64,000 nt of DNA from Candidatus Methanomethylicia archaeon (GTDB taxonomy: Archaea; Thermoproteota; Methanomethylicia; Culexarchaeales; Culexarchaeaceae), in assembly GCA_038727515.1 (NCBI GenBank), contig JAVYVS010000001.1, forward strand, positions 128,001 through 192,000. The letters run 5' to 3'. The notes under the pieces are model-generated. The model searched no databases. It was not told the origin of the DNA and saw only the letters and a list, made by a program, of their open reading frames with translations. Below are positions 13,111 through 59,861 of the stretch, in pieces (position 1 is the first letter of the stretch; every line of letters starts with the position of its first letter). The position numbers and the translations under genes were made by a program.

Positions 13111-13175
13111 TTGTGTATTCATTAAGTTTTAATAATTATGTATTTATAGGTTTAATTCAAGATGGAGGTTATGTT

Positions 13176-13826
13176 ATGAGGGAAATTATTTTGAATAAAT
13201 TGATGGAAGCTATTTTGAATTATGATATTGAAGGTGCTGTTAAAGCTGCTGAAGAAGCTCTTAAATATGGTTTAGATCCTATTGATGCTATTGAGAATGG
13301 CCTTGCTAAGGGTATTAAGATTGTTGGTGAAAAATTTGGTTCTGGCGAGATCTTTTTAACTGAACTTGCTATAGCTGCTGAAGCTATGAAGGAAGCTCTT
13401 AAAATTTTTGAGCCAGCTATATTGAAGAGTGGTAGAGAGAGGAAGGTTTTGGGGAGAATTGTTATTGGAACTGTTGAAGGAGATATACATGATATTGGTA
13501 AGAATATTGTGAGTACCCTCCTCATGGCTTCTGGATTTGAAGTTATCGATCTTGGAGTTGATGTTCCAGTGGAAGTCTTCGTGGAAAAGGTTAAAGAGCT
13601 TAAACCTGATATTCTCGCTCTATCCGCTTTAATGACGACAACTATGATTAAAATGGTGGATGTTATAAAGGCTCTTGAACGTGAAGGTTTAAGAGATAAG
13701 GTTAAGGTTATGATTGGTGGTGCTCCAACATCTAAGGATTGGGCTAGGGAGATTGGTGCTGATGGTCATGGTGTAGATGCTATAGAAGCTGTGGAAGTAG
13801 CTAAGAAGCTTATTGGAGTAGCTTAA
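13176..13826 (+). CDS. Cognate corrinoid (B12-binding) protein, MttC/MtgC-like
   Basis: GTVEGDIHDIGKN, DLGVDVP, SALMTTT, IGGAP; GGAGG precedes ATG at 13176. Confidence 0.95.
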   Translation: MREIILNKLMEAILNYDIEGAVKAAEEALKYGLDPIDAIENGLAKGIKIVGEKFGSGEIFLTELAIAAEAMKEALKIFEPAILKSGRERKVLGRIVIGTVEGDIHDIGKNIVSTLLMASGFEVIDLGVDVPVEVFVEKVKELKPDILALSALMTTTMIKMVDVIKALEREGLRDKVKVMIGGAPTSKDWAREIGADGHGVDAIEAVEVAKKLIGVA

Positions 13827-13843
13827 GTATGGTGATTTAATCT

Positions 13844-15280
13844 ATGAGCACCCCTAAAATTCAATTGTTATCTAAAGAAGAAATTGAGTGTATTCATTAT
13901 TCTTCAATTAAGATTTTGGAAGAAGTTGGTGTAAAGATATATAATGATAATGCTCTTAAACTACTCTATGATAATGGTTGTGAAGTGGATTTTAATAGGA
14001 AGATTGTCCGTATACCTCAACCTCTAGTTAAAGAAGCTTTAAGTAAAACTCCATCCACCATAAAACTTTATGGTAGAAGTAGAAGTTATGATCGTATAAT
14101 TGGAGGGGATATTGTTACATTTAATCCAGGTTCAGCTGCACTATACATTTTAGATTATGATAGGAATGAAATTAGAAAGCCTACTTCCAATGATTTAGCG
14201 AATTTAGTTAGATTGGCTGATGCACTTGAGAATATTCACGCTCAGAGTACAGCTTTAGTTGTTTCAGATGTTCCAGAATCTATTGTTGATCGTTACCGCC
14301 TCTATATTGTCCTTAAAAATTCTCCTAAACCAATAATTACCGGTGCATTTACAATTGATGGAATTTACGATATGAAGCGTATGCTTGAAATTGTAGTTGG
14401 TGGTGAAGAAGAATTAATTAAGAAGCCTATGGCTATATTTGATGTATGTCCTTCATCACCATTAAATTGGAGTGAGATTGTAACTCAAAATTTAATTGAT
14501 TGTGCTAAATTTAATTTACCCATTGAAATAATTCCAGCTCCTCAATTGGGTGCTACCGGCCCTGTCACCATAGCTGGCTCCGTGGCTCAGCATAATGCTG
14601 AATTTCTAAGTGGTTTAGTTATGGCTCAACTTGTTAATCCAAAGACTCCTGTAATCTATGGTGGTTCACCTACAGTTTTAGATCAAAGGTTTGCTACCCC
14701 CTCTCTTGGAGCTATAGAAGCTATTATGGTTGTTTGTTGTTATACTCAGATTGCTAAGAATTATGGAATTCCAACACATGCATATCTTGGAATTAGTGAT
14801 TCAAAGATTATTGATGCTCAATGTGGTTTTGAATCTAGTATTGGAATATTTCTAGGTGTTCTTGCAGGGGTAAATGTTATTTCTGGTCCTGGAATGCTTA
14901 TCTCTGAGAATTGTCAAAGTTTAGAGAAGCTTGTTATAGATAATGAAATATGTGGTATGGCTTTGAGATTGGCTAGAGGTGTAAAAGTTGATGAGGATAC
15001 TCTTGCTATTGATTTAATTAAGAAGGTGGGTCCGGGAGGTATGTATCTAGCTGAGAAACATACTCTTAAACATTTTAGGAGTGAATTGTTAATACCCTCT
15101 GAAATTATTGATAGGAGGGATTGGAAGGTTTGGATGGATTGTGGAAGTAAAGATACTGTTAAACGAGCACATGAAATTACTTCAAAAATTTTAAGTAAAC
15201 ATAAACCTGAACCTCTACCAATTGATGTTGAGAAAGAACTTGATAACTTCGTTAAAGAGATCTTAAAGAAGAAGTGTTGA
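13844..15280 (+). CDS. MttB-superfamily (non-pyrrolysine) methyltransferase 2
   Basis: SSPLNW, GATGPVTIAGS...NAE, YLGISDSKIIDAQCGFE, SGPGML, VGPGG; Ile at the Pyl-equivalent site. Confidence 0.93.
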   Translation: MSTPKIQLLSKEEIECIHYSSIKILEEVGVKIYNDNALKLLYDNGCEVDFNRKIVRIPQPLVKEALSKTPSTIKLYGRSRSYDRIIGGDIVTFNPGSAALYILDYDRNEIRKPTSNDLANLVRLADALENIHAQSTALVVSDVPESIVDRYRLYIVLKNSPKPIITGAFTIDGIYDMKRMLEIVVGGEEELIKKPMAIFDVCPSSPLNWSEIVTQNLIDCAKFNLPIEIIPAPQLGATGPVTIAGSVAQHNAEFLSGLVMAQLVNPKTPVIYGGSPTVLDQRFATPSLGAIEAIMVVCCYTQIAKNYGIPTHAYLGISDSKIIDAQCGFESSIGIFLGVLAGVNVISGPGMLISENCQSLEKLVIDNEICGMALRLARGVKVDEDTLAIDLIKKVGPGGMYLAEKHTLKHFRSELLIPSEIIDRRDWKVWMDCGSKDTVKRAHEITSKILSKHKPEPLPIDVEKELDNFVKEILKKKC

Positions 15281-46932: not shown

Positions 46933-48225
46933 TTAGTTTATTTTTATCTTTAATTTTATTGAATGTACTGAACATGAAATGCATGGATCATAGTTTCTTA
47001 TTATTTGTTCCACTATTAATTGAGCTTCTTCTATTGGTTTACTTATGATTAATGGTATTTGATTTATGATATCTTGTTCTATATGTGCTAAGTTTTGTGT
47101 TGTAGGAGCTATTATCCTAGCTTTTTCAACAAATCCTTCATCATTCAATTTATACGAATGATATAATACTCCTCTTGGAGCTTCCGTTGCTCCACATCCC
47201 CAACCTCCCTTCACTTTATATTCTACGTATGGTTTTTCCGGTTCTCTATATTCATCAATTAATCTCTCTATCTCCAAGGTTGCATGGAATATTTCTGCAA
47301 GTCTCGCTATTATACTTTGATATGTGTTTGTTAATGGTGCTTTATAACCATTGTCCTCTATTATATCTCTTACTTCCCCCCTTAAAGTATTGTAGTTATT
47401 GTTGTATCTAGCTATGGGTCCAGTTATATAGAATCCTCTTCTCCTTATTTTGCATCTTAGCGATGTAGAGTATGGTACTTGTATTTCTTCTATTTCCTTT
47501 TCAAAATCTTCTTCTACAATGTTTAAACCTTTATTGGATATTATTCTTCCACCTATTGTTGGATATTCATTATCTTGATCTTTTAGGGAGAGGTATTCAT
47601 AATCACATTTTACCTCTGGTATCTTAAGTTTAAATGTCCATTTCAATAGTTCTTTTGCTATTTCTTGGTATTCTCTGCATTTATCCTTTATATCTTTTAG
47701 TTCTGTTTTCCTTATTACTCTATAGAATCCGCCTATTCTACATGAGATTGGATGTACAGGTCTTCCACCTAATTTTTCAATTATGTAGTTTCCGAAGGCT
47801 TTTAATCTCATTGCTTTTCTAATTGTTTCAGGTTCTATTTTAGCTAATTCTATAGCATCATTTAATCTTAGGAAGTCTGGAGCGTGAAGTAGAAATGCAT
47901 GTAGAGTATGACTGCTTATCCATTCTCCAAATAGCATGATCTTCCTCAACTCTCTTATTTCTTTAGGTATTTCAATTTCAAAGATTTTCTCTATTGCTCT
48001 GCTGCTACTATAGATGTATGGTATTGGGCATATACCGCATATTCTTGCAACTAAATCTGGAACTTCACTGTATTTTCTACCTATCAAGAATGCTTCGAAG
48101 AATCTTGGAGCTTCAAATATATTTAACTCTAATTTCTCTATTTTTCCATTTGTTATTATTAATTCTACTCCTCCTTCTCCTTCAACTCTCGTTAATGGTT
48201 TAATTTTTAAATCTATTTTACTCAT
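46933..48225 (-). CDS. hydA: Group 3b [NiFe] hydrogenase (sulfhydrogenase) large/alpha subunit
   Basis: TRVEGEG, L1 RICGICP, EAPRG, L2 DPCISCSVH plus a short cleavable tail. Confidence 0.95.
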   Translation of the reverse strand: MSKIDLKIKPLTRVEGEGGVELIITNGKIEKLELNIFEAPRFFEAFLIGRKYSEVPDLVARICGICPIPYIYSSSRAIEKIFEIEIPKEIRELRKIMLFGEWISSHTLHAFLLHAPDFLRLNDAIELAKIEPETIRKAMRLKAFGNYIIEKLGGRPVHPISCRIGGFYRVIRKTELKDIKDKCREYQEIAKELLKWTFKLKIPEVKCDYEYLSLKDQDNEYPTIGGRIISNKGLNIVEEDFEKEIEEIQVPYSTSLRCKIRRRGFYITGPIARYNNNYNTLRGEVRDIIEDNGYKAPLTNTYQSIIARLAEIFHATLEIERLIDEYREPEKPYVEYKVKGGWGCGATEAPRGVLYHSYKLNDEGFVEKARIIAPTTQNLAHIEQDIINQIPLIISKPIEEAQLIVEQIIRNYDPCISCSVHSIKLKIKIN

Positions 48226-48977
48226 TTATTTATCACCTCTCTGAACTTTTGATTCCAATTTTCGAATTTCTTTAATAGTAATGATATGTCCATTTTACTT
48301 AACCCCTTATTTCTAAAGTGTTCCATTAATCTCTCTACTTCTGGTTTATCTGAGGGTCCATAGCATGCGTAGCATGGTCTTTGGAAGCTTGGGCATAGAG
48401 CTCCACATCCAACCATAACTATTGGTCCTAAGCATGGTTCACCTTTAGTTACAAGTACACATGTATACCCCTTTATTTTACATTGTATACATAAACTATG
48501 TGTGGGTAGGAATGGTTCTCTACCAAGCATTATTTGGCTTAATACCCATAATAATTGGCGTCTATTTATTGGGCATCCATTTATTTCAAAATCTACTTTT
48601 ACATGTTCAGATATAGGTGTTGATTTCTCTAACGTTTTAATCCACTCTGGATTTGGATAAACGATCTTTTTATAATCATTGATTTGATTACTCCAATTTC
48701 TTAATGCTTGTATTCCACCTGATGTAGCACATGAACCTATTGCTATTACATATTTTGATTCATTCCTTACCCTTTTAATTTCTTCTTCTTGTTCTGGTGT
48801 TGATATACTTCCCTCAATTAATGCTATATCATAGGGTCCTTCACTAATTTTCTTTGAAGCTTCTATGAAGTATGCTACTTCAACTTTTTCCGCTATTTTT
48901 AAGAGTTCTTCCTCAAGATTTAATAGCTCTAATTGGCATCCACTACAACTTGCAAATTTGAATATTGCCAACTTCAT
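48222..48977 (-). CDS. hydD: Group 3b hydrogenase small/delta subunit
   Basis: SCSGCQ, GSCATSGG, GCP, CIQC...C...CLGP...CGALCP...CYACYG. Confidence 0.93.
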   Translation of the reverse strand: MKLAIFKFASCSGCQLELLNLEEELLKIAEKVEVAYFIEASKKISEGPYDIALIEGSISTPEQEEEIKRVRNESKYVIAIGSCATSGGIQALRNWSNQINDYKKIVYPNPEWIKTLEKSTPISEHVKVDFEINGCPINRRQLLWVLSQIMLGREPFLPTHSLCIQCKIKGYTCVLVTKGEPCLGPIVMVGCGALCPSFQRPCYACYGPSDKPEVERLMEHFRNKGLSKMDISLLLKKFENWNQKFREVINK

Positions 48978-49792
48978 ATTTGCTCCACCTCAAAATAACC
49001 TTTTATTTTTGAAAATTGGAATACTGGTCCATCCTTACATACGAAGTATGGTCCCACTTGACAATGTCCGCATTGCCCTATTCCGCATCGCATCCTCCTC
49101 TCCATTGAAATATATATCCTCTCTTCCGGAATCTTCTTTTTAATTAAGTCTTTTACCGTGAATTTCATCATTATCTCTGGTCCACAAACCATTGCTATTG
49201 TATTTTTAGGGTCTACGTCTACTTTTGGTATTAATGTTGTAACAACACCTACAGCTCCAGCCCATTCCTCTTCCCCTCTATCAACGGTTACATGAAATTC
49301 AGTATTCCTTATCCTCTTATACCTTTCAAATTCTCTTCTATAAACTAAATCTCTTGGGGTTCTTGCACCATAAAGTATTATCATTCTACCATATCTATCC
49401 CTATTTCTCTCTACTTCCATTATTACTGGTCTTAGGGGTGCTATTCCTATTCCACCTGATACTATTAGTATATCAAATCCTTCAGCTTCCTTCACTGGCC
49501 ATGTATTTCCATAAGGTCCTCTAAAACCAATGATATCATTCTCCTTAATCTTACTGATCATTCTTGTTACTGCACCTACAATTTTTATTGTATGCATTAT
49601 CTTTCCATCTTCTAATCCACTTATTGAAATTGGTATTTCCCCTCCACCATATACGTATAATATATTGAATTGTCCTGGTGAACCCTTTACTTCACCTTCC
49701 ATTGGCGTTACATAATACGTGTATACGTCTTGTGTTTCTTGAATAATTTTATTTATCAAACCCTTTTTGAATATGTATTCTTTATAGATCAT
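48974..49792 (-). CDS. hydG: Group 3b hydrogenase gamma subunit (FAD/NAD(P)-binding, 2Fe-2S)
   Basis: GEIPISIS, RGPYG, GGIGIAPLR, CGPEIMM, CGIGQCGHC...CKDGP. Confidence 0.93.
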   Translation of the reverse strand: MIYKEYIFKKGLINKIIQETQDVYTYYVTPMEGEVKGSPGQFNILYVYGGGEIPISISGLEDGKIMHTIKIVGAVTRMISKIKENDIIGFRGPYGNTWPVKEAEGFDILIVSGGIGIAPLRPVIMEVERNRDRYGRMIILYGARTPRDLVYRREFERYKRIRNTEFHVTVDRGEEEWAGAVGVVTTLIPKVDVDPKNTIAMVCGPEIMMKFTVKDLIKKKIPEERIYISMERRMRCGIGQCGHCQVGPYFVCKDGPVFQFSKIKGYFEVEQI

Positions 49793-50871
49793 TTTTCTCC
49801 ACCGCCTAATACCCTTATTATACTTTCTCTAATGTCTATTCCCATGGGACACCACGTTATACATCTACCACATCCCACACAACCTAATGTATCAAACTGC
49901 TTCTCCCAATATGAGAATTTATGTAGTAGCCATTGCCTATATCTAGCCCATAAATCAGGTCTAAAGTTTCCACCAGCTACTTCTGCATATCTATAGGTGA
50001 AGCAGCTATCCCAATATCTAATTCTATCAACATATTCATCTAAATGTGATTCATCATATATGTCGAAGCAGAAGCAGGTGGGACATACCATTGTACAATT
50101 TCCACATCCAACACATTTTTCAGAGACTTTTCTCCATAAATCTTTATTCATAATTTTCTCTTCCAATTCCTTTGGTAAGTTTTCTATGTTAAATGGAGCT
50201 TTCGCCTTCTTTTCAGCTTCCTCCATGGTTTTTATTAAACTAGTGATGTCATCTACTGATGCCTCCCTTAGTTCATTTAAAGATTTCAGTATTTTCCCAC
50301 CTTTTTCACTTCCAACTTCAAATAATACTTTACCATTTATTTTCGTGTATGCTATATCAAAATTTTCTTTAACTCTAGGTCCAGTACCCATTGTGGCACA
50401 AAAGCATGTTTTACCGGGATCTATACAATTTTCCACTATTATTGTGAGTTTTTCTCTTATGGTTTTATAGTATACATCTTCATTCCATGAAAAAGTTTTA
50501 TCCATGATTTTTATCGCAGCAGAATCACATGGTTTTATTGCAAAAAATGTTATTTCCATATTCTGGTAATCGTATGGTTCTATCCTTAATCCTTTGTATA
50601 CTCTGATAATTTTAAGTGTTGGTGGAAACAAGTATTTCTTTGGTGAATCAAATCCATGTCTAAAGAATTTCCCCTTAAATAATCTATAGTTTCCTGGTTC
50701 TTGCAAATCTTCAACATCCCTTGCTAATTCTTCATAATCATTTAATTCTTCATACACTATTGAATTTCCATCTGCTGATATCCTTGGTCCTATCACCTTT
50801 GTCTTTTCCCTTAATATTTTAAAGAGTTTTTCCAGATCGCGCTCTAATCCACTTTTAATTTCTACTATCAT
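49789..50871 (-). CDS. hydB: Group 3b hydrogenase beta subunit (AsrA-like Fe-S protein)
   Basis: PCD, CFC, CVGCGNCTMVCPTCFC, WDSC, CVGCGRCITWCP. Confidence 0.93.
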   Translation of the reverse strand: MIVEIKSGLERDLEKLFKILREKTKVIGPRISADGNSIVYEELNDYEELARDVEDLQEPGNYRLFKGKFFRHGFDSPKKYLFPPTLKIIRVYKGLRIEPYDYQNMEITFFAIKPCDSAAIKIMDKTFSWNEDVYYKTIREKLTIIVENCIDPGKTCFCATMGTGPRVKENFDIAYTKINGKVLFEVGSEKGGKILKSLNELREASVDDITSLIKTMEEAEKKAKAPFNIENLPKELEEKIMNKDLWRKVSEKCVGCGNCTMVCPTCFCFDIYDESHLDEYVDRIRYWDSCFTYRYAEVAGGNFRPDLWARYRQWLLHKFSYWEKQFDTLGCVGCGRCITWCPMGIDIRESIIRVLGGGEK

Positions 50872-51008
50872 AACATCACCGATAAGTCTCCCTCAACTCC
50901 TATTGGTATAACTTGCTTTTAAAGTAGTAATTAATTAAATTATTTATTTCTTTTCATCCGGACTTTTTATGATAAATGTTAAATTTAAATGTATGTAATA
51001 TATGATTT

Positions 51009-51503
51009 ATGATGAATAGTATTGAGTCATTTAAAGAGCAGAGGATACTCTTATTTGATTTTCGTAAATGTTCTGGTTGTTTTATTTGTATGTTGGTATG
51101 TTCATATACCCATTATGGTGGTTTTGATTTCAATAAATCTCATATACGTGTTTATGAGAATCCTAAAGCTCCTTTATCATTTATTAGTATGTATTGTACC
51201 CATTGTGATCATCCAATTTGTGAAGCTGCATGTCCAGCTAATCCTAAAGCTATAGTGAAATCTTCTGATACCGGTTTTGTTAAGATTGATAGGATGAAAT
51301 GTATAGGATGTAGATCATGTATATGTGCATGTCCAATATCTATTCCTCATTTTGATGAGGAATATGGTGTATGTTCTAAATGTGATGCTTGTGATGGAAA
51401 ATTTTTATGTGCAGAATTTTGTAGCACTGGGGCTTTAATGGTTGTTCCGAGAAGTAAAGCTAAGTATTATCTTGAAAATATCATGGGTGTAAAATATGAG
51501 TAG
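51009..51503 (+). CDS. 4x[4Fe-4S] DmsB/HydN/CooF-type electron-transfer protein
   Basis: CSGCFICMLVC, CTHCDHPICEAACP, CIGCRSCICACP, KCDAC...CAEFC. Confidence 0.9.
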   Translation: MMNSIESFKEQRILLFDFRKCSGCFICMLVCSYTHYGGFDFNKSHIRVYENPKAPLSFISMYCTHCDHPICEAACPANPKAIVKSSDTGFVKIDRMKCIGCRSCICACPISIPHFDEEYGVCSKCDACDGKFLCAEFCSTGALMVVPRSKAKYYLENIMGVKYE

Positions 51504-51753
51504 TGATGAAAATTTATATCCATGGAGGAAGAGGGAGAATCCTTTAGCTTCATCAATTAGTAGCCCAATCCTTAGGCTTATTAGAATTGGACATATTCAT
51601 AGACTTCTACCCATCATGGAGAAGGAGAGGGAAAAGATGGGGTTGCAGAAACTTCCTCCATCCGCTTTTTCATCAAAGGATGCTGTATCTGAAGTTAATA
51701 TTTTACTTCAATACAACTTGAGTGATAAAATTAAAAGGAGGATTAAATTGTAA
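51496..51753 (+). CDS. Small protein resembling the C-terminal helical part of HdrC (no Fe-S motifs)
   Basis: IRIGH...EREKMGLQKLPPSAFSSKDAVSEVNILL resembles the HdrC tail; translationally coupled on both sides; no Cys. Confidence 0.55.
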   Translation: MSSDENLYPWRKRENPLASSISSPILRLIRIGHIHRLLPIMEKEREKMGLQKLPPSAFSSKDAVSEVNILLQYNLSDKIKRRIKL

Positions 51754-52601
51754 TGTTAAAATATTCTCTCTTTCTTGGCTGTTTTATACCTGCTATGCAA
51801 CCCTTTGCTGAAGCAGCTTTTAGAAAGATTTCTTCTATTCTCGGTATTGAATTAATTGATATTAAGGGGGCTTCTTGCTGTCCAGTATCTGATGTTTTTG
51901 GAATTGTTAGTTATGATGCTTGGGTTAATATTGCTGCTAGAAATATGTCTTTGGCTGAAGAAATTAATGGAGATATCGTTGTTTTATGTAATGGTTGTTG
52001 GGATACATTTTCCAGTGTATTGAAGAAGTTAGTTGAAGATGATAATCTTCTAAATAAAGTAAATAATAATTTATCTCTTTTAGGTAGGAAGTTTACTGGT
52101 AAATTAAAGGTTAAACATTATTTTGAAGTCTTAGTTGAAGATATTGGTTTAGAGAAGGTTCAGGAGAATGTGAAAATTCCATTAAATTTGAATATTGCTA
52201 TGCAGTATGGTTGTAAATTGTATAGGGATAATAGATTGTTAAAGTATTTTGATGAATTAATAGAGGTTATTGGTGCTAAAAAGGTTTTTTATGATGCTGA
52301 AAGATTATGTTGTGGTTATCCACTATCCCTATATTCACAAGATCTAGCTTTCTCTGAGAGAACTAAGAGGAAGATTGATTCAATAATTAAAGCTGAAGTT
52401 GATTGTATTGCTGTTACATGCCCAGCATGTTTCTACTATTTAGAGGAGGGTGAATTGAATTTGATTAAGAGTGGATATAAATGTAATATTCCAATTCTAC
52501 ATTTATCTGAACTCATAGCTTTATCCTTTGGATTTAAACCTAGTGAAATTGGAGGATCCCTACATAAAATTGGATATATGAATATTCTTGGTGGTAGATG
52601 A
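51753..52601 (+). CDS. hdrB: Heterodisulfide reductase subunit B-like protein (two CCG domains)
   Basis: FLGC...SCCP...AARN...CNGC; YGC...LCCG...TCPAC; PILHLSELIAL. Confidence 0.92.
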   Translation: MLKYSLFLGCFIPAMQPFAEAAFRKISSILGIELIDIKGASCCPVSDVFGIVSYDAWVNIAARNMSLAEEINGDIVVLCNGCWDTFSSVLKKLVEDDNLLNKVNNNLSLLGRKFTGKLKVKHYFEVLVEDIGLEKVQENVKIPLNLNIAMQYGCKLYRDNRLLKYFDELIEVIGAKKVFYDAERLCCGYPLSLYSQDLAFSERTKRKIDSIIKAEVDCIAVTCPACFYYLEEGELNLIKSGYKCNIPILHLSELIALSFGFKPSEIGGSLHKIGYMNILGGR

Positions 52602-52602
52602 T

Positions 52603-53022
52603 ATGATTGAGGTATTAAATTCTCTAAGGGATTTATTAGGAAGTGATCTATTTGATTTTTATCGTGATCGTTATGGTAGATATTATCTTTTAACTAAAGC
52701 TGAGAGGATATTGGATGTAGTTGGTTTAATTGTTAAATTTGATGGGAGATTTATAGCTTTATCCGCCAATGATCTTGGAAGTTTAGGTTTTGAATTAATT
52801 TATCATTTTGATTTTAGTGGTTTTGGAGAACCTTATGTAGTGTCAATTAAGGTTAGAGTATCTAGAGAGAATCCTGTTATAAAATCTATTGTTAATATTG
52901 TGGAAGCTGCTAATTGGGCTGAGAGGGAAATTATGGAATTGATGGGTGTTAAATTTGAGGGGCATCCTGATCCTAGAAGATTATTCTTACCATATGCATG
53001 GCCTAAGGAGGAAGTGGCATAA
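52603..53022 (+). CDS. Group 4 hydrogenase NuoC-like subunit
   Basis: FELIYHF, AANWAEREIMELMGVKFEGHPDPRRLFLP. Confidence 0.9.
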   Translation: MIEVLNSLRDLLGSDLFDFYRDRYGRYYLLTKAERILDVVGLIVKFDGRFIALSANDLGSLGFELIYHFDFSGFGEPYVVSIKVRVSRENPVIKSIVNIVEAANWAEREIMELMGVKFEGHPDPRRLFLPYAWPKEEVA

Positions 53023-54239
53023 TGGGTGAGAATAATTCTAAAGAAACTTCACTTAAAATTGGAGGGTTAAATTCATCTCAATTCATAGTTCCAATAGGAC
53101 CTTTTCATCCAGCTCTTCTTGAAGGTGAATTCTTTAAGTTAAAGGTTGATGGTGAGAAGATAATTAGTGCAGATATTAAGCTTGGCTATAATTATAGGGG
53201 GATTATGAAACTCGCTGAGGAAAGAGATTATTGGAAGAATATTTACTTATTTGAAAGGATTTGTGGTATATGCAATTTTACACATACATTAGCATATGTT
53301 ATGACGGTTGAAATGATCGGTGGAATAGATATACCTGATAGAGCTAGGTATATAAGAACTTTCTTAGCGGAATTGGAGAGAATTCATAGTCATATGTTAT
53401 GGGCTGGCATAGCTGTAGAACTTCTTGGATTCAAGACCTTATTCATGTATATTTGGAGGGAGAGGGAGCATGCACTTGACATCTTTGAGATGATTACTGG
53501 TAATAGAAGGCATTCAGCTATGAATACTATTGGTGGTGTTAGGAGAGATATAAGTATTGACTTAATTAATAGGATTGAAGGTAAAATTAAGGTTTTGGGG
53601 AAGAAGGTTAAAGAAATTGAGAAAATGATATTGGAAGATCCTATACTAAAATCTCGTACTAAAGGTATTGGTGTTCTCGGTAAAGATAATGCTAAGAAGT
53701 TGGGTGTTGTTGGACCTGTGGCTAGAGCCAATGGATTGAAAGTTGATATTAGAAAGATGGATCCATATGCTGCCTATAAGGATGTTCCTTTTGATATTAT
53801 TACCCGTGATGATGGTGATGTATATTCTTTAATTGAAGTTCGAATAGGTGAACTCTATGAATCTATAGGTATATGCTTGTATTGTTTAGATGTACTTAAG
53901 AGGATTGGAGGCCCTATAAAGGTTGATGTGAGTGAACTTCCACCTGGTGAAGCTATTGGAAGAACTGAAGCTCCTAGAGGTGAACTTTTCTATTATATTC
54001 TTTCTAATGGTACAAATATTCCTGAGAGAGTTAGAATTAGAACTCCATCATATATGAATGATTATGCAATTTTACATATGCTACCAGGTTATACTTTAGC
54101 TGATGCTCCAATAATAATAGCTAGTGTTGATCCATGTATGACTTGTACTGATCGTTGTATATATGTTGAAGACGTTAGGATTGGCATGGTGAAAAAGACT
54201 ACTCTAATGGATTTATCTAGAGAAGTTTGTGGTGGATAA
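53022..54239 (+). CDS. Group 4 [NiFe] energy-converting hydrogenase large subunit
   Basis: PIGPFHP, L1 ERICGICNFTH, EAPRGE, L2 DPCMTCTDR plus a C-terminal extension. Confidence 0.93.
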   Translation: MGENNSKETSLKIGGLNSSQFIVPIGPFHPALLEGEFFKLKVDGEKIISADIKLGYNYRGIMKLAEERDYWKNIYLFERICGICNFTHTLAYVMTVEMIGGIDIPDRARYIRTFLAELERIHSHMLWAGIAVELLGFKTLFMYIWREREHALDIFEMITGNRRHSAMNTIGGVRRDISIDLINRIEGKIKVLGKKVKEIEKMILEDPILKSRTKGIGVLGKDNAKKLGVVGPVARANGLKVDIRKMDPYAAYKDVPFDIITRDDGDVYSLIEVRIGELYESIGICLYCLDVLKRIGGPIKVDVSELPPGEAIGRTEAPRGELFYYILSNGTNIPERVRIRTPSYMNDYAILHMLPGYTLADAPIIIASVDPCMTCTDRCIYVEDVRIGMVKKTTLMDLSREVCGG

Positions 54240-56110
54240 ATATGATTGATCCAAGTATAATGATCTTCTTGATATTTTCGTCAGCAGTATTTTCATTGAT
54301 TCATAGAATTCCAAGAATTATTAGGGATTTCATGTTTGTTTCATCAACTCTTCTCACTCTGATAATCGTTATTATCAACTTATGTAATCCATATACTGGA
54401 TTTATATTTCTAAATATGTTTAATTTGTCAATTAGAGTTAATGGTTTTACATTATTCCTCTCTTTAATTGTTTCATTTATTAGTTTTATGGTGTCAATAT
54501 ATTCAATTGAGTATATAGAGGATGAAGATAGGGGTATCTATAGTTTTTTAGTGTTAATTATTGTTGGATGTTTAATTGTAATGGCTTTTTCATGGAATCT
54601 CATGGTCTTATTCATATTTTCTGAAATATGTATTTTTGCATCATCACTTCTTGTAACCCATTATAAAACTTCTATTTCATATGAAGCTGCTTTAAAATAC
54701 CTTGCGGTACAATTTATTTCTTCAATTTTAATATTGAGTGGAATTGGAATTTTATATGATGAAATTTTGAAGAAGGGGTTTTATGGGTTTCCAGTTTTTG
54801 ATCTTGATTTCTTATCTCAATATTTAGAGGGTAATGTTGCTATTAAGATTGGTATAATTTTCATTTTAATTGGTTTTATGGCTAAATTACCATTATTTCC
54901 AATGCATATTTGGCTTCCAGATGCTTCAACTGTGTGTCCAGCTCCTATTAGTGTTCTATTGCATACTATGATGATAAAGGTTGCGGGTATTCCCAGCTTC
55001 CTTACATTATTTAAGCTTTCAAATATTTTCCATAATCCCATTATTCTCTGGTTTCTTCTATGTTGGTTGGGGATTATAACTATGTTTGTTAATACTGTAA
55101 TGGCTTTTGCTCAAGATGATGTTAAAAGGCTTCTAGCTTTTGATAGTGTTGGTCAAATGGGTTATGTTGTGCTTGGGCTTGGTATTGGAGGTCTTGGATT
55201 TATGAAGTTTAATATTTATGGTGATGTTACTTGGCTTGAAGTTGCTATTATAGGTTTATCTTCTGGTTTATTTCACATGTTTAATCATACATTATTTAAA
55301 TCAGTTTTATTCTTTTGTTCTGGTAATATAGAGCATGAAACTGGAATTAGGGATATCAATAGACTGGGAGGTTTATTTAATCATATGCCCTTTACAAGTA
55401 TTTCAATGCTTATAGGTTCCTTAGCTATTTCTGGAATTCCATTTCTCAATGGTTTTGTTAGTAAGTGGATGATTTATAATGCATGTATTGGTGGAGGAGA
55501 ATTCATTATGGCCTTTATCTCCATTTTTACTTGTGCTTTAACTTTTGCATTATTTATGAAGGTTATTGGATCTATGTGTCTGGGCTTATCCAGCTTTAAT
55601 AAAGATGTTAAGGAGGCATCAAATATTATGATTTTCCCACCAATCCTATTATCCGTATTCTGTATAATTTTTGGAATATTTCCACATATAGTTTTGAGAT
55701 ATTTATTGTATCCCGCTATTTACTCATTGACATCAATAGTTAGTTTTCCAGTAATTGATCCTTTTGAATCATTAATTAAATTATTATATGGATTTTTTGA
55801 TGTATATTGGCTTTTTTCTCTGTTTATGTTGATATCTTTACTTATATACCTAATTATTCATAGATTTTCTCAAAAGAAGATTCCTACGGTTTCTAGGGAT
55901 AAATATCTTCCATTTACTGGTGGAGTTTTTCAAGAACCCTACATGGTGATTAATGAGATTAAAGTTTCATCAACTCCATTTACATGGTTTATACTTAGAT
56001 TTTTCAATTTATTTAGGATGTATCATGGTGGATTTATAAATTGGTATGTATTGGTGATTTTAACATTTATTGTCGTCATTTTTACGCTTACTATTTTTGG
56101 AGGTGTTTAA
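54227..56110 (+). CDS. Antiporter-like (MrpD/NuoL/HyfB) ion-translocating subunit
   Basis: EAALKY, KLPLFPMHIWLPDA, QDDVKRLLAF, HMFNHTLFKSVLF, GIPFLNGFVSKW. Confidence 0.92.
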   Translation: MWWINMIDPSIMIFLIFSSAVFSLIHRIPRIIRDFMFVSSTLLTLIIVIINLCNPYTGFIFLNMFNLSIRVNGFTLFLSLIVSFISFMVSIYSIEYIEDEDRGIYSFLVLIIVGCLIVMAFSWNLMVLFIFSEICIFASSLLVTHYKTSISYEAALKYLAVQFISSILILSGIGILYDEILKKGFYGFPVFDLDFLSQYLEGNVAIKIGIIFILIGFMAKLPLFPMHIWLPDASTVCPAPISVLLHTMMIKVAGIPSFLTLFKLSNIFHNPIILWFLLCWLGIITMFVNTVMAFAQDDVKRLLAFDSVGQMGYVVLGLGIGGLGFMKFNIYGDVTWLEVAIIGLSSGLFHMFNHTLFKSVLFFCSGNIEHETGIRDINRLGGLFNHMPFTSISMLIGSLAISGIPFLNGFVSKWMIYNACIGGGEFIMAFISIFTCALTFALFMKVIGSMCLGLSSFNKDVKEASNIMIFPPILLSVFCIIFGIFPHIVLRYLLYPAIYSLTSIVSFPVIDPFESLIKLLYGFFDVYWLFSLFMLISLLIYLIIHRFSQKKIPTVSRDKYLPFTGGVFQEPYMVINEIKVSSTPFTWFILRFFNLFRMYHGGFINWYVLVILTFIVVIFTLTIFGGV

Positions 56111-57082
56111 ATGTTTTGGGATAAATTGTTAACATTCTTTGCATCTATATTTTTATCTTTTATTATTGGATGGTTTAATTTCTGGATTTTTAGGAAGTTG
56201 AGAGCTAAATTTCAATCTAGGGTTGGTCCTCCATGGTATCAGCCCTTTGCAGATATAATTAAACTTTTTGGAAAGGAATTCTTTATACCATCTCTTTCTC
56301 AAAGGTCAATTTATGTATTTTCTCCGATTTTATCTTTATCTTCAATTTTAATTTTAAGTTTCTTAATACCTCCGGGGATCCCCCATTGGATTGGGTCTTT
56401 CACTGGAGATTTAATAGTTATAATATATTTCTCAGTTATGTTTTCCTTATCGTTTATTTTAGCTGGTGTTTCTAGTGGGAATGTTTTTAGTTTTGTTGGA
56501 TCTAGTAGGGAGACTATAATGGTTTTAATTGTAGAATTGCCTTTGGCTATATCATTAATTATTCCTTCAATAATTTTAAATCGTCTCTATGGATTTCCTT
56601 CACTTTCTCTCTCTATGATATTAGAATTTCAGTTTTCCACGTGGTTTTCAATATTTCCTAATTGGTTTATATTTCATGCACCATTTTCAGCTTTAGCTTT
56701 ATTCATTTGTGTTCTTACTAAGTGTTCTTTAAAGCCCTTTGGAGATATACCTGAAGCTGAACAGGAAATAATTGCTGGTCCATTAACTGAATATGGTGGT
56801 CCTCTTCTAGGGCTTTTTGAAATTTCTAGATTACTTAGATTCTATGTCTTTCCAGCTTTATTTGTCAATTTATATTTGGGTGGTGGTGATACCTTCATAT
56901 ATCCATATAATATCATAATATTTTTAATAAAGATCTTCATAGTTGATGTAATTTTGGTAATTGTGGATTGTATATATCCAAGATTTAGGATTGATCAAGC
57001 TTTTAAATGGTATATGACCTTCTGTCTTGTTTTAACGTTAATTGATTTATTTAGATTTTCCTTGGGGGTTTTGGTATGGTGA
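56111..57082 (+). CDS. NuoH/HycD/EchB-like membrane subunit
   Basis: RKLRAKFQSRVGPPWYQPFADIIKL, DIPEAEQEIIAGPLTEYGG, PRFRIDQ. Confidence 0.92.
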   Translation: MFWDKLLTFFASIFLSFIIGWFNFWIFRKLRAKFQSRVGPPWYQPFADIIKLFGKEFFIPSLSQRSIYVFSPILSLSSILILSFLIPPGIPHWIGSFTGDLIVIIYFSVMFSLSFILAGVSSGNVFSFVGSSRETIMVLIVELPLAISLIIPSIILNRLYGFPSLSLSMILEFQFSTWFSIFPNWFIFHAPFSALALFICVLTKCSLKPFGDIPEAEQEIIAGPLTEYGGPLLGLFEISRLLRFYVFPALFVNLYLGGGDTFIYPYNIIIFLIKIFIVDVILVIVDCIYPRFRIDQAFKWYMTFCLVLTLIDLFRFSLGVLVW

Positions 57083-57639
57083 AATTAAATATTTTGAGGG
57101 AATTATTGAAATCTTTTATGAGACCTTCTACAATAAAGTTTCCTAAAGGGTCTATAACTGAAGTTCCAGAGGGTTTTAGAGGTCTTCCACAATTTGATGA
57201 GAAGAAATGTATTGGTTGTAAAGCTTGTTTAAATGTTTGTTCATCTAAAGCCATTTTTGCATATGAGGATGGAGGTCTTATGAAATTAAATATTTTCTAT
57301 GCTAGATGTATATTTTGTGGTAGATGCGAAGAAGTTTGTCCTGAGGGTGCTATTAAACTTTCACGGAAATTTGATTTAACCAGTTATAGTAGGGATGATT
57401 GTATACTTGGTATTCAATTGAGTTTAACTGTTTGTAGGAATTGTGGTAGAATCTTTGCATGTACGAATCAATTGAATAGAGTTAAAGATCGTATTTTAGA
57501 GAATATTGATCCCTCAATTAAAAGTATAGTTTTGAAAGATTTAGAGTATTATATTTATCTATGTCCTGATTGTAGGAGGATTTTAAGTTATGAATTTAAT
57601 TTTCATCCAGTTAAATTCTATGTTGTTTCAGGTGTATAG
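57076..57639 (+). CDS. NuoI/HycF-like 2x[4Fe-4S] subunit
   Basis: FRGLP, CIGCKACLNVC, CIFCGRCEEVCP, extra CRNC...CPDCRR. Confidence 0.9.
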   Translation: MVKLNILRELLKSFMRPSTIKFPKGSITEVPEGFRGLPQFDEKKCIGCKACLNVCSSKAIFAYEDGGLMKLNIFYARCIFCGRCEEVCPEGAIKLSRKFDLTSYSRDDCILGIQLSLTVCRNCGRIFACTNQLNRVKDRILENIDPSIKSIVLKDLEYYIYLCPDCRRILSYEFNFHPVKFYVVSGV

Positions 57640-57641
57640 GT

Positions 57642-58220
57642 ATGATTGAAATCATAATTAACATTATAATGGTTATTTTAGCTATGATTATGATAGAAGT
57701 AAGGAAATTACTTTTACTTCCAATTCTACTTGCTGCACAAGGACTTCTATTTACATGCTCTATTCTTCTTGAAGGATTTAGTGAACATGTCTTTCCAATT
57801 ATTTTCTTTTCAATATTCTTTTCACCATTCATGGTTAATTATATTATTAGGAGGATTCATTTATCTGAATCAAATCCATTGCTTCCCCACATAATTTCGA
57901 TTGCTTTACTCTTACTCTTAGTCTTTCTATGTATTTCAATTCAGTTCCTTATCTTTGGTATTGTAGATTTGAATTTAATAATCATTATTATTGGTGTTTA
58001 TGGTATTATTGTGAAAACTGATTTAAGGAAGATTATTGCTTGTCTATCTATGATTTTTATGATATCACATGTATTCCTAGAATATCTCCCACTGGAATTA
58101 TCTATTATCTTAACATTTCTCTCTATCCTCTTCTTATCCTTCTTCATATTCTTCACTTTAAAGTTTTATTTAGTTAGTGGAAAGATAAGTACAAGAGATT
58201 TAAAGGAGTTGAGATTTTAA
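57642..58220 (+). CDS. Hydrophobic membrane subunit of the group 4 hydrogenase (HyfE-like position)
   Basis: About 6-7 TM segments, within the operon, C-terminal LKELRF. Confidence 0.65.
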   Translation: MIEIIINIIMVILAMIMIEVRKLLLLPILLAAQGLLFTCSILLEGFSEHVFPIIFFSIFFSPFMVNYIIRRIHLSESNPLLPHIISIALLLLLVFLCISIQFLIFGIVDLNLIIIIIGVYGIIVKTDLRKIIACLSMIFMISHVFLEYLPLELSIILTFLSILFLSFFIFFTLKFYLVSGKISTRDLKELRF

Positions 58221-58666
58221 TGAAGATTTTAAAGTGGGCTAGGGAGAGATCTCCTTGGATTGCTTTATTTCATGCTGGTGGATGTAATAATTGTGATATT
58301 GAAGTCGTGGATTCTCTTACACCTAGGTTTGATATTGAACGTCTTGGAATACTATTAAAACAGAATCCGAGGCATGCGGATATACTTGTTGTAACTGGTT
58401 GTGTAACTAAGCATTCTAAGGTTTTCTTAAAGAGGATATATGATCAAATGCTATATCCAAATGTTGTTGTTGCCGTTGGAACTTGTGCTTGTACTGGAGG
58501 TGTCTTTGTGGATGGAGTAGGGGTTGAATTGAAGGAAACTCATGCAGTTATTGGTGGTGTTGATAAAGTTGTTCCAGTTGATGTTTATGTACCTGGATGT
58601 CCACCTAAACCTGAAGCAATTATACAAGGAGTAATTAAAGCTATTGGTAAACTTAAAGAGAAATAG
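58220..58666 (+). CDS. Group 4 hydrogenase small subunit (NuoB/HycG/EchC-like)
   Basis: GGCNNCDIE, NPRHADIL, GTCACTGG, VPGCPPKPE. Confidence 0.93.
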   Translation: MKILKWARERSPWIALFHAGGCNNCDIEVVDSLTPRFDIERLGILLKQNPRHADILVVTGCVTKHSKVFLKRIYDQMLYPNVVVAVGTCACTGGVFVDGVGVELKETHAVIGGVDKVVPVDVYVPGCPPKPEAIIQGVIKAIGKLKEK

Positions 58667-58718
58667 GTTTACATGTAGGTATATTTATTATATTGATTTC
58701 CCCATATATTTTTGGGCA

Positions 58719-59861
58719 ATGTTCCTTCGCGGTAAATATGGTGGTATATGTAAAATTTGTGGAATTGAAAGTAAGATAGTTTCAAGTGTTATTGGTGTTT
58801 GTGTAGATTGTTTAAGGAATAATTGGAGTGAAGCTAAGAAGATTATTTTAAATGTTCATGATAGATCTAGAGCACGTTATGGTTTACCTCAATTTCCACC
58901 TAAAAGTATTGGTGGATTAAGATGTGGTATTTGTGATTTAGATTGTATATTAAGTGTTGGTGATAAGGGGTTTTGTGGTTTAGTTGAAAATGTTAATGGT
59001 AAACTCGTTAGATATGCTGGTACTCCTATGGCTGGACTTGTTGAATGGTATTATGATCCTATACCAACGAATTGTGTTGGTGCTTGGTTTTGCCCTGCAT
59101 CAACTGGATTAGGTTATCCAAAATATGCTTTAACAATGAATGGGGAACATGGATATTATAATTTAGCTGTATTTTATGGTGGATGTAATTCTGATTGTCT
59201 TTTTTGTCAGAATTGGCAGCATAAGCAACTTGTTGTTAAAGGTAAACCTTTAATGTCTGCTGAAGATTTAGCTTCAAAAGTTAATTTTCGTACAACTTGC
59301 ATATGCTTTTTCGGTGGAGATCCATCTCCTCATGTTGTTCATGCTCTTGCAGTTTCTGAATATGCTTTAAAGAAAGCTTCATCTGAAGGTCGCATTCTAC
59401 GGATATGTTGGGAGACCAATGGTCATTTTAGTGAAGCTTTTATGAATAGAATTGTTGATGTTTCTCTTAAGAGTGGTGGAATTATTAAATTTGATTTAAA
59501 AGCTTGGTCTCCTGAAGTTTATTATACTTTAACTGGTATTGATATTGGACGTGTATATGAAAATGTTAAGCTTATCCTTAAACATTGGAATGAGAGACCT
59601 GAAGTTCCACTTTTCATGGCTAGTACACTTCTCGTTCCAGGGTATGTAGATGTATATGAAGTGGAGGGGATCTCAAGATTTCTAGCTTCTTTTGATCGTA
59701 ACATACCATATTCATTACTTGCTTTTCACCCAGATTATCTATTAATTGATCTTCCACCAACAAGTAAATCGCATGCTAAAATAGCTTTAGAAACTGCTAG
59801 AAATGCTGGTTTAAGGAATGTTAATTTAGGAAATATTTTCCTATTAGGAAACTATTATTGA
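58719..59861 (+). CDS. Radical SAM, PflA / AmmeMemoRadiSam-like family
   Basis: CKIC...CVDC, CGICDLDC, YYDPIPTNC, GCNSDCLFCQNW, FGGDP, WETNG, AFHP. Confidence 0.88.
   Translation: MFLRGKYGGICKICGIESKIVSSVIGVCVDCLRNNWSEAKKIILNVHDRSRARYGLPQFPPKSIGGLRCGICDLDCILSVGDKGFCGLVENVNGKLVRYAGTPMAGLVEWYYDPIPTNCVGAWFCPASTGLGYPKYALTMNGEHGYYNLAVFYGGCNSDCLFCQNWQHKQLVVKGKPLMSAEDLASKVNFRTTCICFFGGDPSPHVVHALAVSEYALKKASSEGRILRICWETNGHFSEAFMNRIVDVSLKSGGIIKFDLKAWSPEVYYTLTGIDIGRVYENVKLILKHWNERPEVPLFMASTLLVPGYVDVYEVEGISRFLASFDRNIPYSLLAFHPDYLLIDLPPTSKSHAKIALETARNAGLRNVNLGNIFLLGNYY

Follow-up and report, generated by a model that had tools for sequence, protein, structure and literature searches.

What can a membrane-bound hydrogenase that carries the catalytic subunit of a heterodisulfide reductase (Hdr) be doing in a hot-spring archaeon in whose genome the key methane-making genes, McrA and McrB, were not found? 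This question is raised by an operon at positions 51009-58666 (+ strand) of the window analyzed here, a stretch of 64,000 nucleotides from a Candidatus Methanomethylicia archaeon of the family Culexarchaeaceae (assembly GCA_038727515.1, contig JAVYVS010000001.1, positions 128,001 to 192,000 of the forward strand). The operon places genes for a polyferredoxin, a short remnant of the subunit HdrC (here called mini-HdrC) and HdrB at the head of a group 4 [NiFe]-hydrogenase. We propose that its ten genes probably specify a single membrane complex, of the type already published as HdrB-linked group 4 [NiFe]-hydrogenases, which would use H2 to reduce a disulfide other than that of coenzymes M and B (CoM-S-S-CoB).

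Complexes of this kind have been recognized in several archaeal groups. Kohtz et al. (2022) described Ehd of the Methanomethylicia, Ehe of the Culexarchaeia, Drh of the Methanocellales and Ehg of the Nezhaarchaeia, and noted a second, 'Ehd-like' complex in the Culexarchaeia metagenome-assembled genome (MAG) JZ-Bin-30 (PMC9723716). Ehd was described by Borrel et al. (2019), as summarized in PMC9723716, and Drh by Lyu and Lu (2015), as cited in PMC6046458 and PMC9723716. For deep Asgard archaea, Hermodarchaeia and Baldrarchaeia among them, a 2024 preprint by Appler et al. reports group 4 complexes of the MBH-like type 'with a peripheral heterodisulfide reductase domain'; neither HdrB or HdrC nor a polyferredoxin is named in its text (10.1101/2024.07.04.601786). 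Judged by its genes, the operon is a well-preserved member of this class, already described from genomes as 'Ehd-like'.

Results

Ten co-directional open reading frames (ORFs) fill the operon at the coordinates listed in the preliminary description of this DNA, and their junctions are overlaps of 1-14 nt or gaps of 0-2 nt. Three genes belong to the Hdr side and seven to the hydrogenase module. The preliminary description had counted nine genes and six hydrogenase subunits, overlooking either the NuoC-like gene or that of a 192-aa membrane protein.

The hydrogenase module, all on the + strand, consists of a NuoC/MbhK-like subunit (52588-53022; PF00329, 1e-23), a NuoD-like large subunit (53022-54239), a sole antiporter-like membrane subunit of the NuoL/MrpD/HyfB type (54227-56110; PF00361, 4e-50, and PF00662), a NuoH/MbhM-like membrane subunit (56111-57082; PF00146, 2e-63), a NuoI/HycF-like subunit with two [4Fe-4S] clusters (57076-57639; Fer4 families and NF009053, formate hydrogenlyase Fe-S subunit, 5.6e-36), the 192-aa hydrophobic protein (57642-58220) and a short NuoB/MbhJ-like small subunit (58220-58666; PF01058, 3e-31). 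The large subunit carries both Ni-binding motifs, L1 (RICGICNFTH) and L2 (DPCMTCTDR), intact as first read, followed by a 29-residue C-terminal extension after L2, and the small subunit has the Cys residues that a proximal cluster would need. These ligands, the short small subunit and the NuoC-, NuoI-, NuoH- and NuoL-like partners identify a group 4 enzyme, and the hdrB and hdrC-like genes inside its operon identify it as HdrB-linked. The nearest solved relatives of the large subunit are MbhL (6cfw_L, 1e-82) and HycE (7z0s_E, 1e-78). High NuoD/FpoD scores had prompted us to consider a NiFe-less, complex-I-like (Fpo/Nuo) identity, which was rejected because both Ni-binding motifs are intact. 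The 192-aa protein has no Pfam or NCBIfam match, even at E 10. It is kept at the same position in Asgard loci (29-37% identity), an Atlas feature search returned 'Hydrogenase 4 membrane subunit' (PF00420) at 0.86, which we take as a lead only, and the protein may be HyfE/NuoK-like.

The first gene of the operon encodes the polyferredoxin (51009-51503, + strand; 164 aa; PF13247 (Fer4_11), 6e-14), whose 16 Cys residues form four [4Fe-4S] cluster motifs and are invariant across 18 homologues. DmsB is among its best NCBIfam matches, together with HybA and PadI, in keeping with its initial designation as a DmsB-type protein. A profile of the family matched the Fe-S subunit of AOR (8c0z_C, 2e-32) and 6x6u_B, WOR5 Fe-S subunit, in the PDB and, further, HycB3 of HDCR (7qv7_A) and HycB of formate hydrogenlyase (FHL; 7z0s_B, 5e-22); HdrC was not among the PDB matches at E 1e-8 or better. 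The alternative that the protein is a ferredoxin domain of HdrC in diverged form was considered and rejected at the family level, on the grounds that the protein belongs to PF13247, not PF13183/PF13534, and that no HdrC appeared among the PDB matches. The proposal that an unrelated polyferredoxin has replaced the ferredoxin domain of HdrC is upheld by this assignment to the HycB/CooF/AOR-FeS family. Since the matches are to HycB-type proteins and not to HdrC, the module reads as a putative HycB/CooF-type connector, as in FHL and Coo hydrogenases, with HdrB as the catalytic partner held in place by the HdrC remnant.

That remnant, mini-HdrC (51496-51753, + strand), contains not a single Cys in its 85 residues and is difficult to place from one sequence. 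No Pfam match was obtained at E up to 10, the sole NCBIfam match is to positions 92-137 of 144 of the HdrC model TIGR03290 (E 0.0085), a search of the single sequence against the PDB gave HdrC chains at E 0.2-0.35, and a single-sequence word search recovered two close relatives only. An exhaustive profile search of 1.8 billion representatives delineated a family of 64-100-aa proteins with the conserved motifs YP(L/W)RK, GH and RE..GL...PPTAY, essentially free of Cys (one member has one C-terminal Cys); a 571-aa match (P0136) was dropped as a low-complexity repeat protein. The family profile (A2) matches residues ~110-185 of solved HdrC in five chains at E 7e-13 to 8e-8, namely 8rvu_c (7e-13), 8rvv_C, 7bkb_C, 5odc_C (2.4e-8) and 9sfi_E. 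In 80+ loci, the same hidden Markov model recognizes proteins encoded directly upstream of hdrB, both ~90-aa proteins and ordinary HdrCs of 170-210 aa. An AlphaFold2 model of mini-HdrC is helical (mean pLDDT 71), and when Foldseek compared it with 350,542 PDB chains, HdrC chains took the first seven places; at E 0.19-0.8 these matches lie below significance and are used only as agreement with the sequence result. By these comparisons, the 85-aa protein is genuinely homologous to HdrC, but only to its C-terminal, HdrB-binding arm, the two-[4Fe-4S] ferredoxin domain being absent. The resemblance to the C-terminal HdrC helices, first suggested by eye, and the HdrC similarity sought as a check on it were both borne out.

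The retained arm would be expected to dock on HdrB, and a structural model agrees with this. HdrB, polyferredoxin and mini-HdrC, the last as the scored partner, were folded together, each with its alignment. Mini-HdrC obtained an ipSAE of 0.82, and the best of 3 controls 0.00; the 0.82 mark is attained by 58 of 80 solved complexes and by 2 of 110 mismatched pairs. The runs share at least 64% of their contacts, the pLDDT of the partner is at least 61, and residues 17-79 of mini-HdrC are predicted to lie on residues 8-63, 106-112, 192-194 and 265-270 of HdrB. Because HdrBC complexes have already been solved, this outcome shows likeness to them and is not independent proof of binding. Homology and the model together support the view that mini-HdrC carries no cluster and is the surviving HdrC clamp around the N-terminal CCG domain of HdrB.

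A natural gene fusion hints at where this clamp meets the hydrogenase. In family f7, one locus (L122:8766-9422, minus strand) encodes a 218-aa protein in which NuoC (residues 30-138) runs into mini-HdrC (residues 132-218), with hdrB next and a gcvH-like gene close by. Each of the four genomes of this family has a frame of 218-241 aa. Judging by the fusion, the conserved YPxRK stretch near the N-terminus of mini-HdrC would be located at the NuoC C-terminus, and mini-HdrC probably anchors HdrB on the hydrogenase arm, on its NuoC side.

HdrB itself (51753-52601, + strand) has two CCG domains (PF02754 twice). It aligns with 5odc_B at E 3.6e-64 with all ten CCG cysteines in register, so that both CCG cysteine sets noted at the outset, and the proposed ligands of the non-cubane clusters, are present. 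Its score against TIGR03288, 238 bits, is under the equivalog cut-off of 345, and its other NCBIfam matches include relatives of SdhE, LdhH, TfrB and GlcF. As also reported initially, QYGCK and CCGYPL stand at the canonical HYGCH and CCGAGGG sites. The shortening of a loop was likewise real, with 32 residues between the GC and CCG motifs compared with 40-41 in canonical proteins, and it lies between these two motifs. Among 94 distinct HdrBs with an adjacent HdrC-like gene, the CCG-AGGG loop accompanies a full HdrC in 46 of 50, and other loops accompany mini-HdrC in 43 of 44, counts that come from related, non-independent sequences and do not constitute a statistical test.

The differences extend to the substrate pocket. 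In the super-assembly of M. maripaludis, the residues named along the proton path and CoM site are HdrB His154 and Glu87, the proposed proton relay, and HdrC Thr79, Tyr81, Tyr84, Glu94 and Lys98 (PMC13518236). The present HdrB has Lys155 at the position of His154 and Ser88 at that of Glu87, and the HdrC stretch 79-98 that lines the CoM site falls in the part of HdrC that mini-HdrC lacks. Position 154 is His in the Ehd HdrBs of the Methanomethylicia-type families f5 and f6, Lys in this copy and in the Asgard-type and Ehe copies, and Arg in the Baldrarchaeota form. The genome was also searched for methanogenesis and coenzyme genes, as had been recommended. McrA, McrB and ComA were not found in the assembly, which is 93.6% complete, ComE appeared below cut-off only, and a ComB-family gene is present. 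From McrA, McrB and ComA not being found and from Lys and Ser at the positions of His154 and Glu87, the earlier suggestion of a substrate other than CoM-S-S-CoB appears plausible and, on this sequence evidence, likely.

Relationship to described complexes

The ferredoxin/mini-HdrC/HdrB triad is not new: it is the core of published Ehd (EhdC/EhdD/EhdE) and Ehe. The preliminary description had allowed that the architecture might already be the described Ehd form, and this has largely turned out to be the case, the same triad being found in Ehd and Ehe. In the published gene table, the entries 'EhdD / hdrC' and 'EheH / HdrC?' appear, and a small, separately predicted drhH adjoins hdrB (PMC9723716); databases name a 90-aa Methanocella protein 'hdrC-like protein' (NCBI) and many members 'heterodisulfide reductase subunit C' (JGI). 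Among the papers turned up by term searches, none was found to state that such an HdrC is cluster-free or that the wiring has been taken over by a HycB-type protein; cluster-free HdrC with HycB-type wiring is a refinement of a known system, not a new system.

This operon may even be the 'Ehd-like' cluster already in print. The JZ-Bin-30 complex is likewise a second HdrB and membrane [NiFe]-hydrogenase cluster in a Culexarchaeon with Ehe, likewise without SdhA, CdhA or GcvH neighbours, and the JZ-Bin-30 gene tables and this genome each hold four HdrB genes, three on one contig and the fourth elsewhere (PMC9723716). The published account gives no subunit anatomy, and in the published tree the JZ-Bin-30 complex groups with Bathyarchaeia and Methanomethylicia (PMC9723716), whereas this operon groups with Hermod- and Heimdallarchaeota in our tree of 22 sequences.

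The nearest full matches, sought among species-representative genomes, are Hermodarchaeota, Heimdallarchaeota and Promethearchaeota MAGs. Their ten-gene order is identical to that of this operon, with identities of 61-63% for NuoD, 72-75% for NuoB and 50-54% for HdrB. The host here differs in being a Culexarchaeia-type member of the Thermoproteota. A group 3b hydrogenase lies next to the operon in both settings; in the Hermod- and Promethearchaeota loci it is co-directional and directly upstream, whereas here it is divergent and 29-42% identical. The Asgard loci also have a converging CoADR-like gene, and none lies downstream of the operon here; the homologue in this genome (34% identical) is on another contig. 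The survey of synteny thus placed the exact gene order in Asgard MAGs and the triad, in addition, in Ehd and Ehe loci.

Ehd shares with this operon the polyferredoxin (EhdC), a mini-HdrC (EhdD, ~91 aa, matching the whole mini profile), HdrB (EhdE) and NuoL-, NuoH-, NuoI- and NuoB-like subunits. Ehd-type loci of sister families run TM - NuoL - polyferredoxin - mini-HdrC - HdrB - NuoCD - NuoH - NuoI - NuoB, an order that fits the nine published Ehd genes. Besides this gene order, Ehd differs in that NuoC and NuoD are fused, the membrane protein has ~100-120 aa, HdrB has His at position 154 and a CCGLLLY loop, the large subunit is just ~44% identical, and the hosts are mcr-bearing methanogens.

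An Ehe-type paralogue is found on contig 2 of this genome (G000:C2 ~296.7-304.2 kb), arranged hdrA2C2B2 - sdhBA - gcvH - polyferredoxin - mini-HdrC - hdrB onward. It has the same triad (mini-HdrC 35-37%, HdrB 49% identical), with Lys at position 154 and the CCGYPL loop; it differs in the gcvH at its head, in the hdrA2C2B2 and sdhBA genes before it, in a separate large-subunit clade, and in its gene order (NuoB - TM100 - NuoL - NuoCD - H - I). Among 62 genomes of the class, only this one has two strong mini-HdrC genes. In related Culexarchaeia-type genomes (L005:16224-17488, L006:15231-16447), Ehe is followed by lplB, whose product is the small lipoate-protein ligase subunit, and by a gene for a lipoyl synthase of the LipS2 family, which fits a lipoyl-GcvH link for Ehe.

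Two further systems complete the comparison. For Drh, the published gene list has hdrB adjoining the small drhH, and the complex is reported without an antiporter-like subunit (PMC9723716); its host is a methanogen, and the 90-aa 'hdrC-like protein' of the Drh host Methanocella falls in the mini-HdrC family (E ~2e-20). With HdrABC-MvhAGD (5ODC and others), the operon has in common the HdrB fold, the ten cluster Cys and the C-terminal arm of HdrC. It has neither HdrA nor flavin, and therefore no bifurcation module; the HdrC ferredoxin domain is missing, a HycB-type four-cluster protein would feed electrons from the membrane hydrogenase, and His154, Glu87 and the CCGAGGG loop are changed.

Phylogeny and genomic neighbourhood

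A maximum-likelihood tree of the large subunit, built from 22 sequences, places this protein as sister of the Hermod-/Heimdallarchaeota sequences (support 97/98) and apart from Ehe, Ehd and the Baldrarchaeota form. By this tree, the operon appears to belong to an Ehd-like clade typified by Hermod- and Heimdallarchaeia. A closer copy, with the same gene order and an HdrB 83% identical, is present on a hot-spring metagenome contig. Three group 4 hydrogenases are encoded in this genome: this operon, the Ehe-type paralogue and one without Hdr genes. The third (L002:6430-14658; G000:C2 ~106-115 kb) is followed by small Mrp-like membrane ORFs, and its large subunit grouped with a Thorarchaeota sequence in the tree.

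Upstream of the operon and divergent from it, the genes hydB-hydG-hydD-hydA (46933-50871, - strand) encode a group 3b-type hydrogenase (Fer4_22; NAD_binding_1 with DHODB Fe-S; Oxidored_q6; NiFeSe_Hases, all Pfam), which is context and not part of the complex. The two operons are separated by an AT-rich intergenic region of 137 nt (50872-51008), likely a promoter region common to both. Downstream, a radical SAM gene (58644-59861, + strand; PF04055; likely true start ATG 58719) follows; it is not conserved beside related operons. Its identity as a lipoyl synthase, as beside Ehe in relatives, was considered and rejected, as there was no LipS-family match and the matches to AmmeMemoRadiSam/activase families were only weak.

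In two genomes of the sister genus (L142, L143), the corresponding region reads serS - hydADGB - 228 nt - nhaP, with no operon. Since only 228 nt separate hydB from nhaP there, positions 51009-59861, the operon and the radical SAM gene between hydB and nhaP, represent an 8.9-kb block that this genome has and the sister genus does not. This absence, together with the tree, favours a gain of the block by transfer, though its loss in the sister genus may instead account for the pattern. Base composition gave no foreign-block signal, GC being 0.30-0.33 inside and outside. In Hermod- and Promethearchaeota loci (L009, L011, L012, L014, L017), hydBGDA is directly upstream, and the Heimdallarchaeota contig begins at the polyferredoxin gene and shows the ten genes only. 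Because the 3b genes here and in Asgard archaea are just 29-42% identical, the pairing of 3b and group 4 hydrogenases seems to have arisen or persisted independently.

Elsewhere in the window, an MttB-family region (11635-15280) contains a match to the Rfam mttB pyrrolysine insertion element PYLIS_3 (12619-12725, 44.3 bits). It lies inside an uninterrupted 491-aa MttB-family ORF, which is followed by genes for a B12-binding corrinoid protein and a second MttB-family protein. As the ORF has no in-frame TAG, it looks like a non-Pyl MttB paralogue in which the coding DNA resembles the element.

Discussion

The metal-binding motifs of the complex are all intact, and the components that the Hdr head would need for its assembly are present. 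We propose that electrons would leave the [NiFe] site in the NuoD-like subunit by way of the proximal NuoB-like cluster and continue along the two NuoI-like clusters and the four polyferredoxin clusters to the two non-cubane clusters of HdrB. The membrane part would be formed by the NuoH-like subunit, the one antiporter-like NuoL-type subunit and the 192-aa protein. H2 oxidation would be coupled, with ion translocation and in principle reversibly, to the reduction of a disulfide that is either of low molecular weight or bound to a protein. With H2 at -414 mV and common disulfides at about -140 to -290 mV, such electron flow releases enough energy for ion translocation and could drive the one antiporter-like subunit. 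We infer the ion pumping, the direction and the substrate of the complex; H2 uptake would be more likely than thiol-driven H2 evolution. The disulfide would probably not be CoM-S-S-CoB, because key genes were not found and the pocket is altered (Lys155, Ser88 and no HdrC 79-98). Candidate substrates include lipoyl-GcvH, suggested because gcvH heads the Ehe paralogue and lplB and lipS2 lie beside Ehe in relatives, and a CoA-type disulfide or persulfide, suggested because a CoADR/Nox-type gene converges on the Asgard operons.

Several observations weigh against this interpretation. To our knowledge, no biochemistry is available for any HdrB-linked group 4 hydrogenase, and the published models are genomic. 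The well-characterized near relatives of the large subunit, MBH and FHL, are all H2-evolving, not H2-consuming, and coupling in the uptake direction requires an energy-releasing step at the NiFe/proximal-cluster site that is unproven. In the structural model, just two polyferredoxin residues contact mini-HdrC, and the score covers the mini-HdrC partner, not the polyferredoxin-HdrB or polyferredoxin-NuoI interfaces. Since the Asgard and Ehe orthologues retain Glu87, only this copy has lost it. Finally, the absence of mcr and comA is read from an incomplete MAG, and the ComB-family gene (2-phosphosulfolactate phosphatase, PF04029) lies upstream of an hdrC-hdrB pair (G000:C2:273227-275800), a pair of the canonical type.

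The alternative that survives best, although we regard it as unlikely, is operation in reverse: a dithiol, for example dihydrolipoyl-GcvH from glycine cleavage or 2-oxoacid metabolism, would be oxidized and H2 released, driven by low H2 pressure at high temperature or by the ion gradient, so that the complex would serve as a fermentative electron sink replacing an E3-type dihydrolipoamide dehydrogenase. It is in keeping with the origin of the nearest characterized large subunits, MbhL and HycE, from H2-evolving enzymes, and it gains from the Ehe-type paralogous operon of this genome, which starts with gcvH, from the lplB and lipS2 genes that come after Ehe in related genomes, and from a second GcvH of this genome, encoded on another contig. 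H2 production was likewise considered for Ehe by Kohtz et al. (PMC9723716). Neither gcvH nor a lipoylation gene adjoins the present operon, however, and the neighbouring radical SAM protein gave no LipS-family match. Turning dithiol into H2 would, moreover, consume ion gradient, being endergonic under standard conditions.

Less probable still is a hydrogen-driven sulfur reductase, in which the substrate of HdrB would be polysulfide or sulfane sulfur, or else a trisulfide or persulfide on a carrier protein, as for DsrK and sHdr; the complex would have a role analogous to that of MBS of the Thermococcales. CCG-domain proteins have diverse substrates, and relatives of SdhE, LdhH, TfrB and GlcF are among the HdrB matches; the neighbouring enzyme is of group 3b, the 'sulfhydrogenase' type; and in the Asgard loci the gene converging on the operon is for a CoADR/Nox-type pyridine-nucleotide disulfide oxidoreductase, a pairing that recalls the MBS/NSR and MBH/SHI sets of the Thermococcales. 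Yet no gene for a sulfur carrier (DsrC, TusA, DsrE or LbpA) is present in the operon, and the CoADR-like gene of this genome is on another contig.

It is very improbable that the complex is an Ehd of the methanogen type, using H2 to reduce CoM-S-S-CoB as has been proposed for Methanomethylicia: HdrB is identical in the 40% range to solved CoM-S-S-CoB reductases with all cluster ligands present, the same triad occurs in Ehd of mcr-bearing sister families and the genome has a ComB-family gene, but McrA, McrB and ComA were not found and ComE was seen below cut-off only, Culexarchaeia are reported without mcr and full CoM/CoB synthesis (PMC9723716), and Lys replaces His154, whereas family f6 Ehd HdrBs keep His.

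The anatomy of this complex has implications beyond this genome. HdrB-linked membrane hydrogenases figure in energy models of Methanomethylicia, Culexarchaeia, Nezhaarchaeia, Methanocellales and deep Asgard archaea, and none has been purified. To these models our analysis adds refinements: a universal cluster-free HdrC clamp, a HycB-type connector, the NuoC fusion, the residue-154 pattern and a cassette-like placement by a 3b hydrogenase. As the 'HdrC' of these complexes is a cluster-free clamp on HdrB, all electrons must pass the HycB/CooF-type four-cluster protein. The NuoC::mini-HdrC fusion is a pointer to the likely docking site of the Hdr head on the hydrogenase arm, and HdrB residue 154 (His in Methanomethylicia-type Ehd; Lys or Arg here, in Ehe and in Asgard-type copies) could serve as a marker for a possible change of substrate. 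The occurrence of the operon block beside a 3b hydrogenase in two phyla suggests an H2-cycling unit.

A broader interpretation, which we put forward tentatively and hold to be doubtful as a whole, is that mini-HdrC and an HdrB with Lys154 have been retuned to another disulfide (a protein-bound lipoyl group, or a CoA-type disulfide or persulfide), and that the result is an undescribed energy-conserving H2:disulfide respiration, repeatedly paired with a 3b hydrogenase for internal H2 cycling and encoded on a mobile cassette of 8-9 kb. Such retuning would span hosts in which no Mcr was found, such as this Culexarchaeon, and hosts not known as methanogens, such as Hermod- and Heimdallarchaeia. If this is true, the cassette would have moved between Asgard archaea and Thermoproteota.

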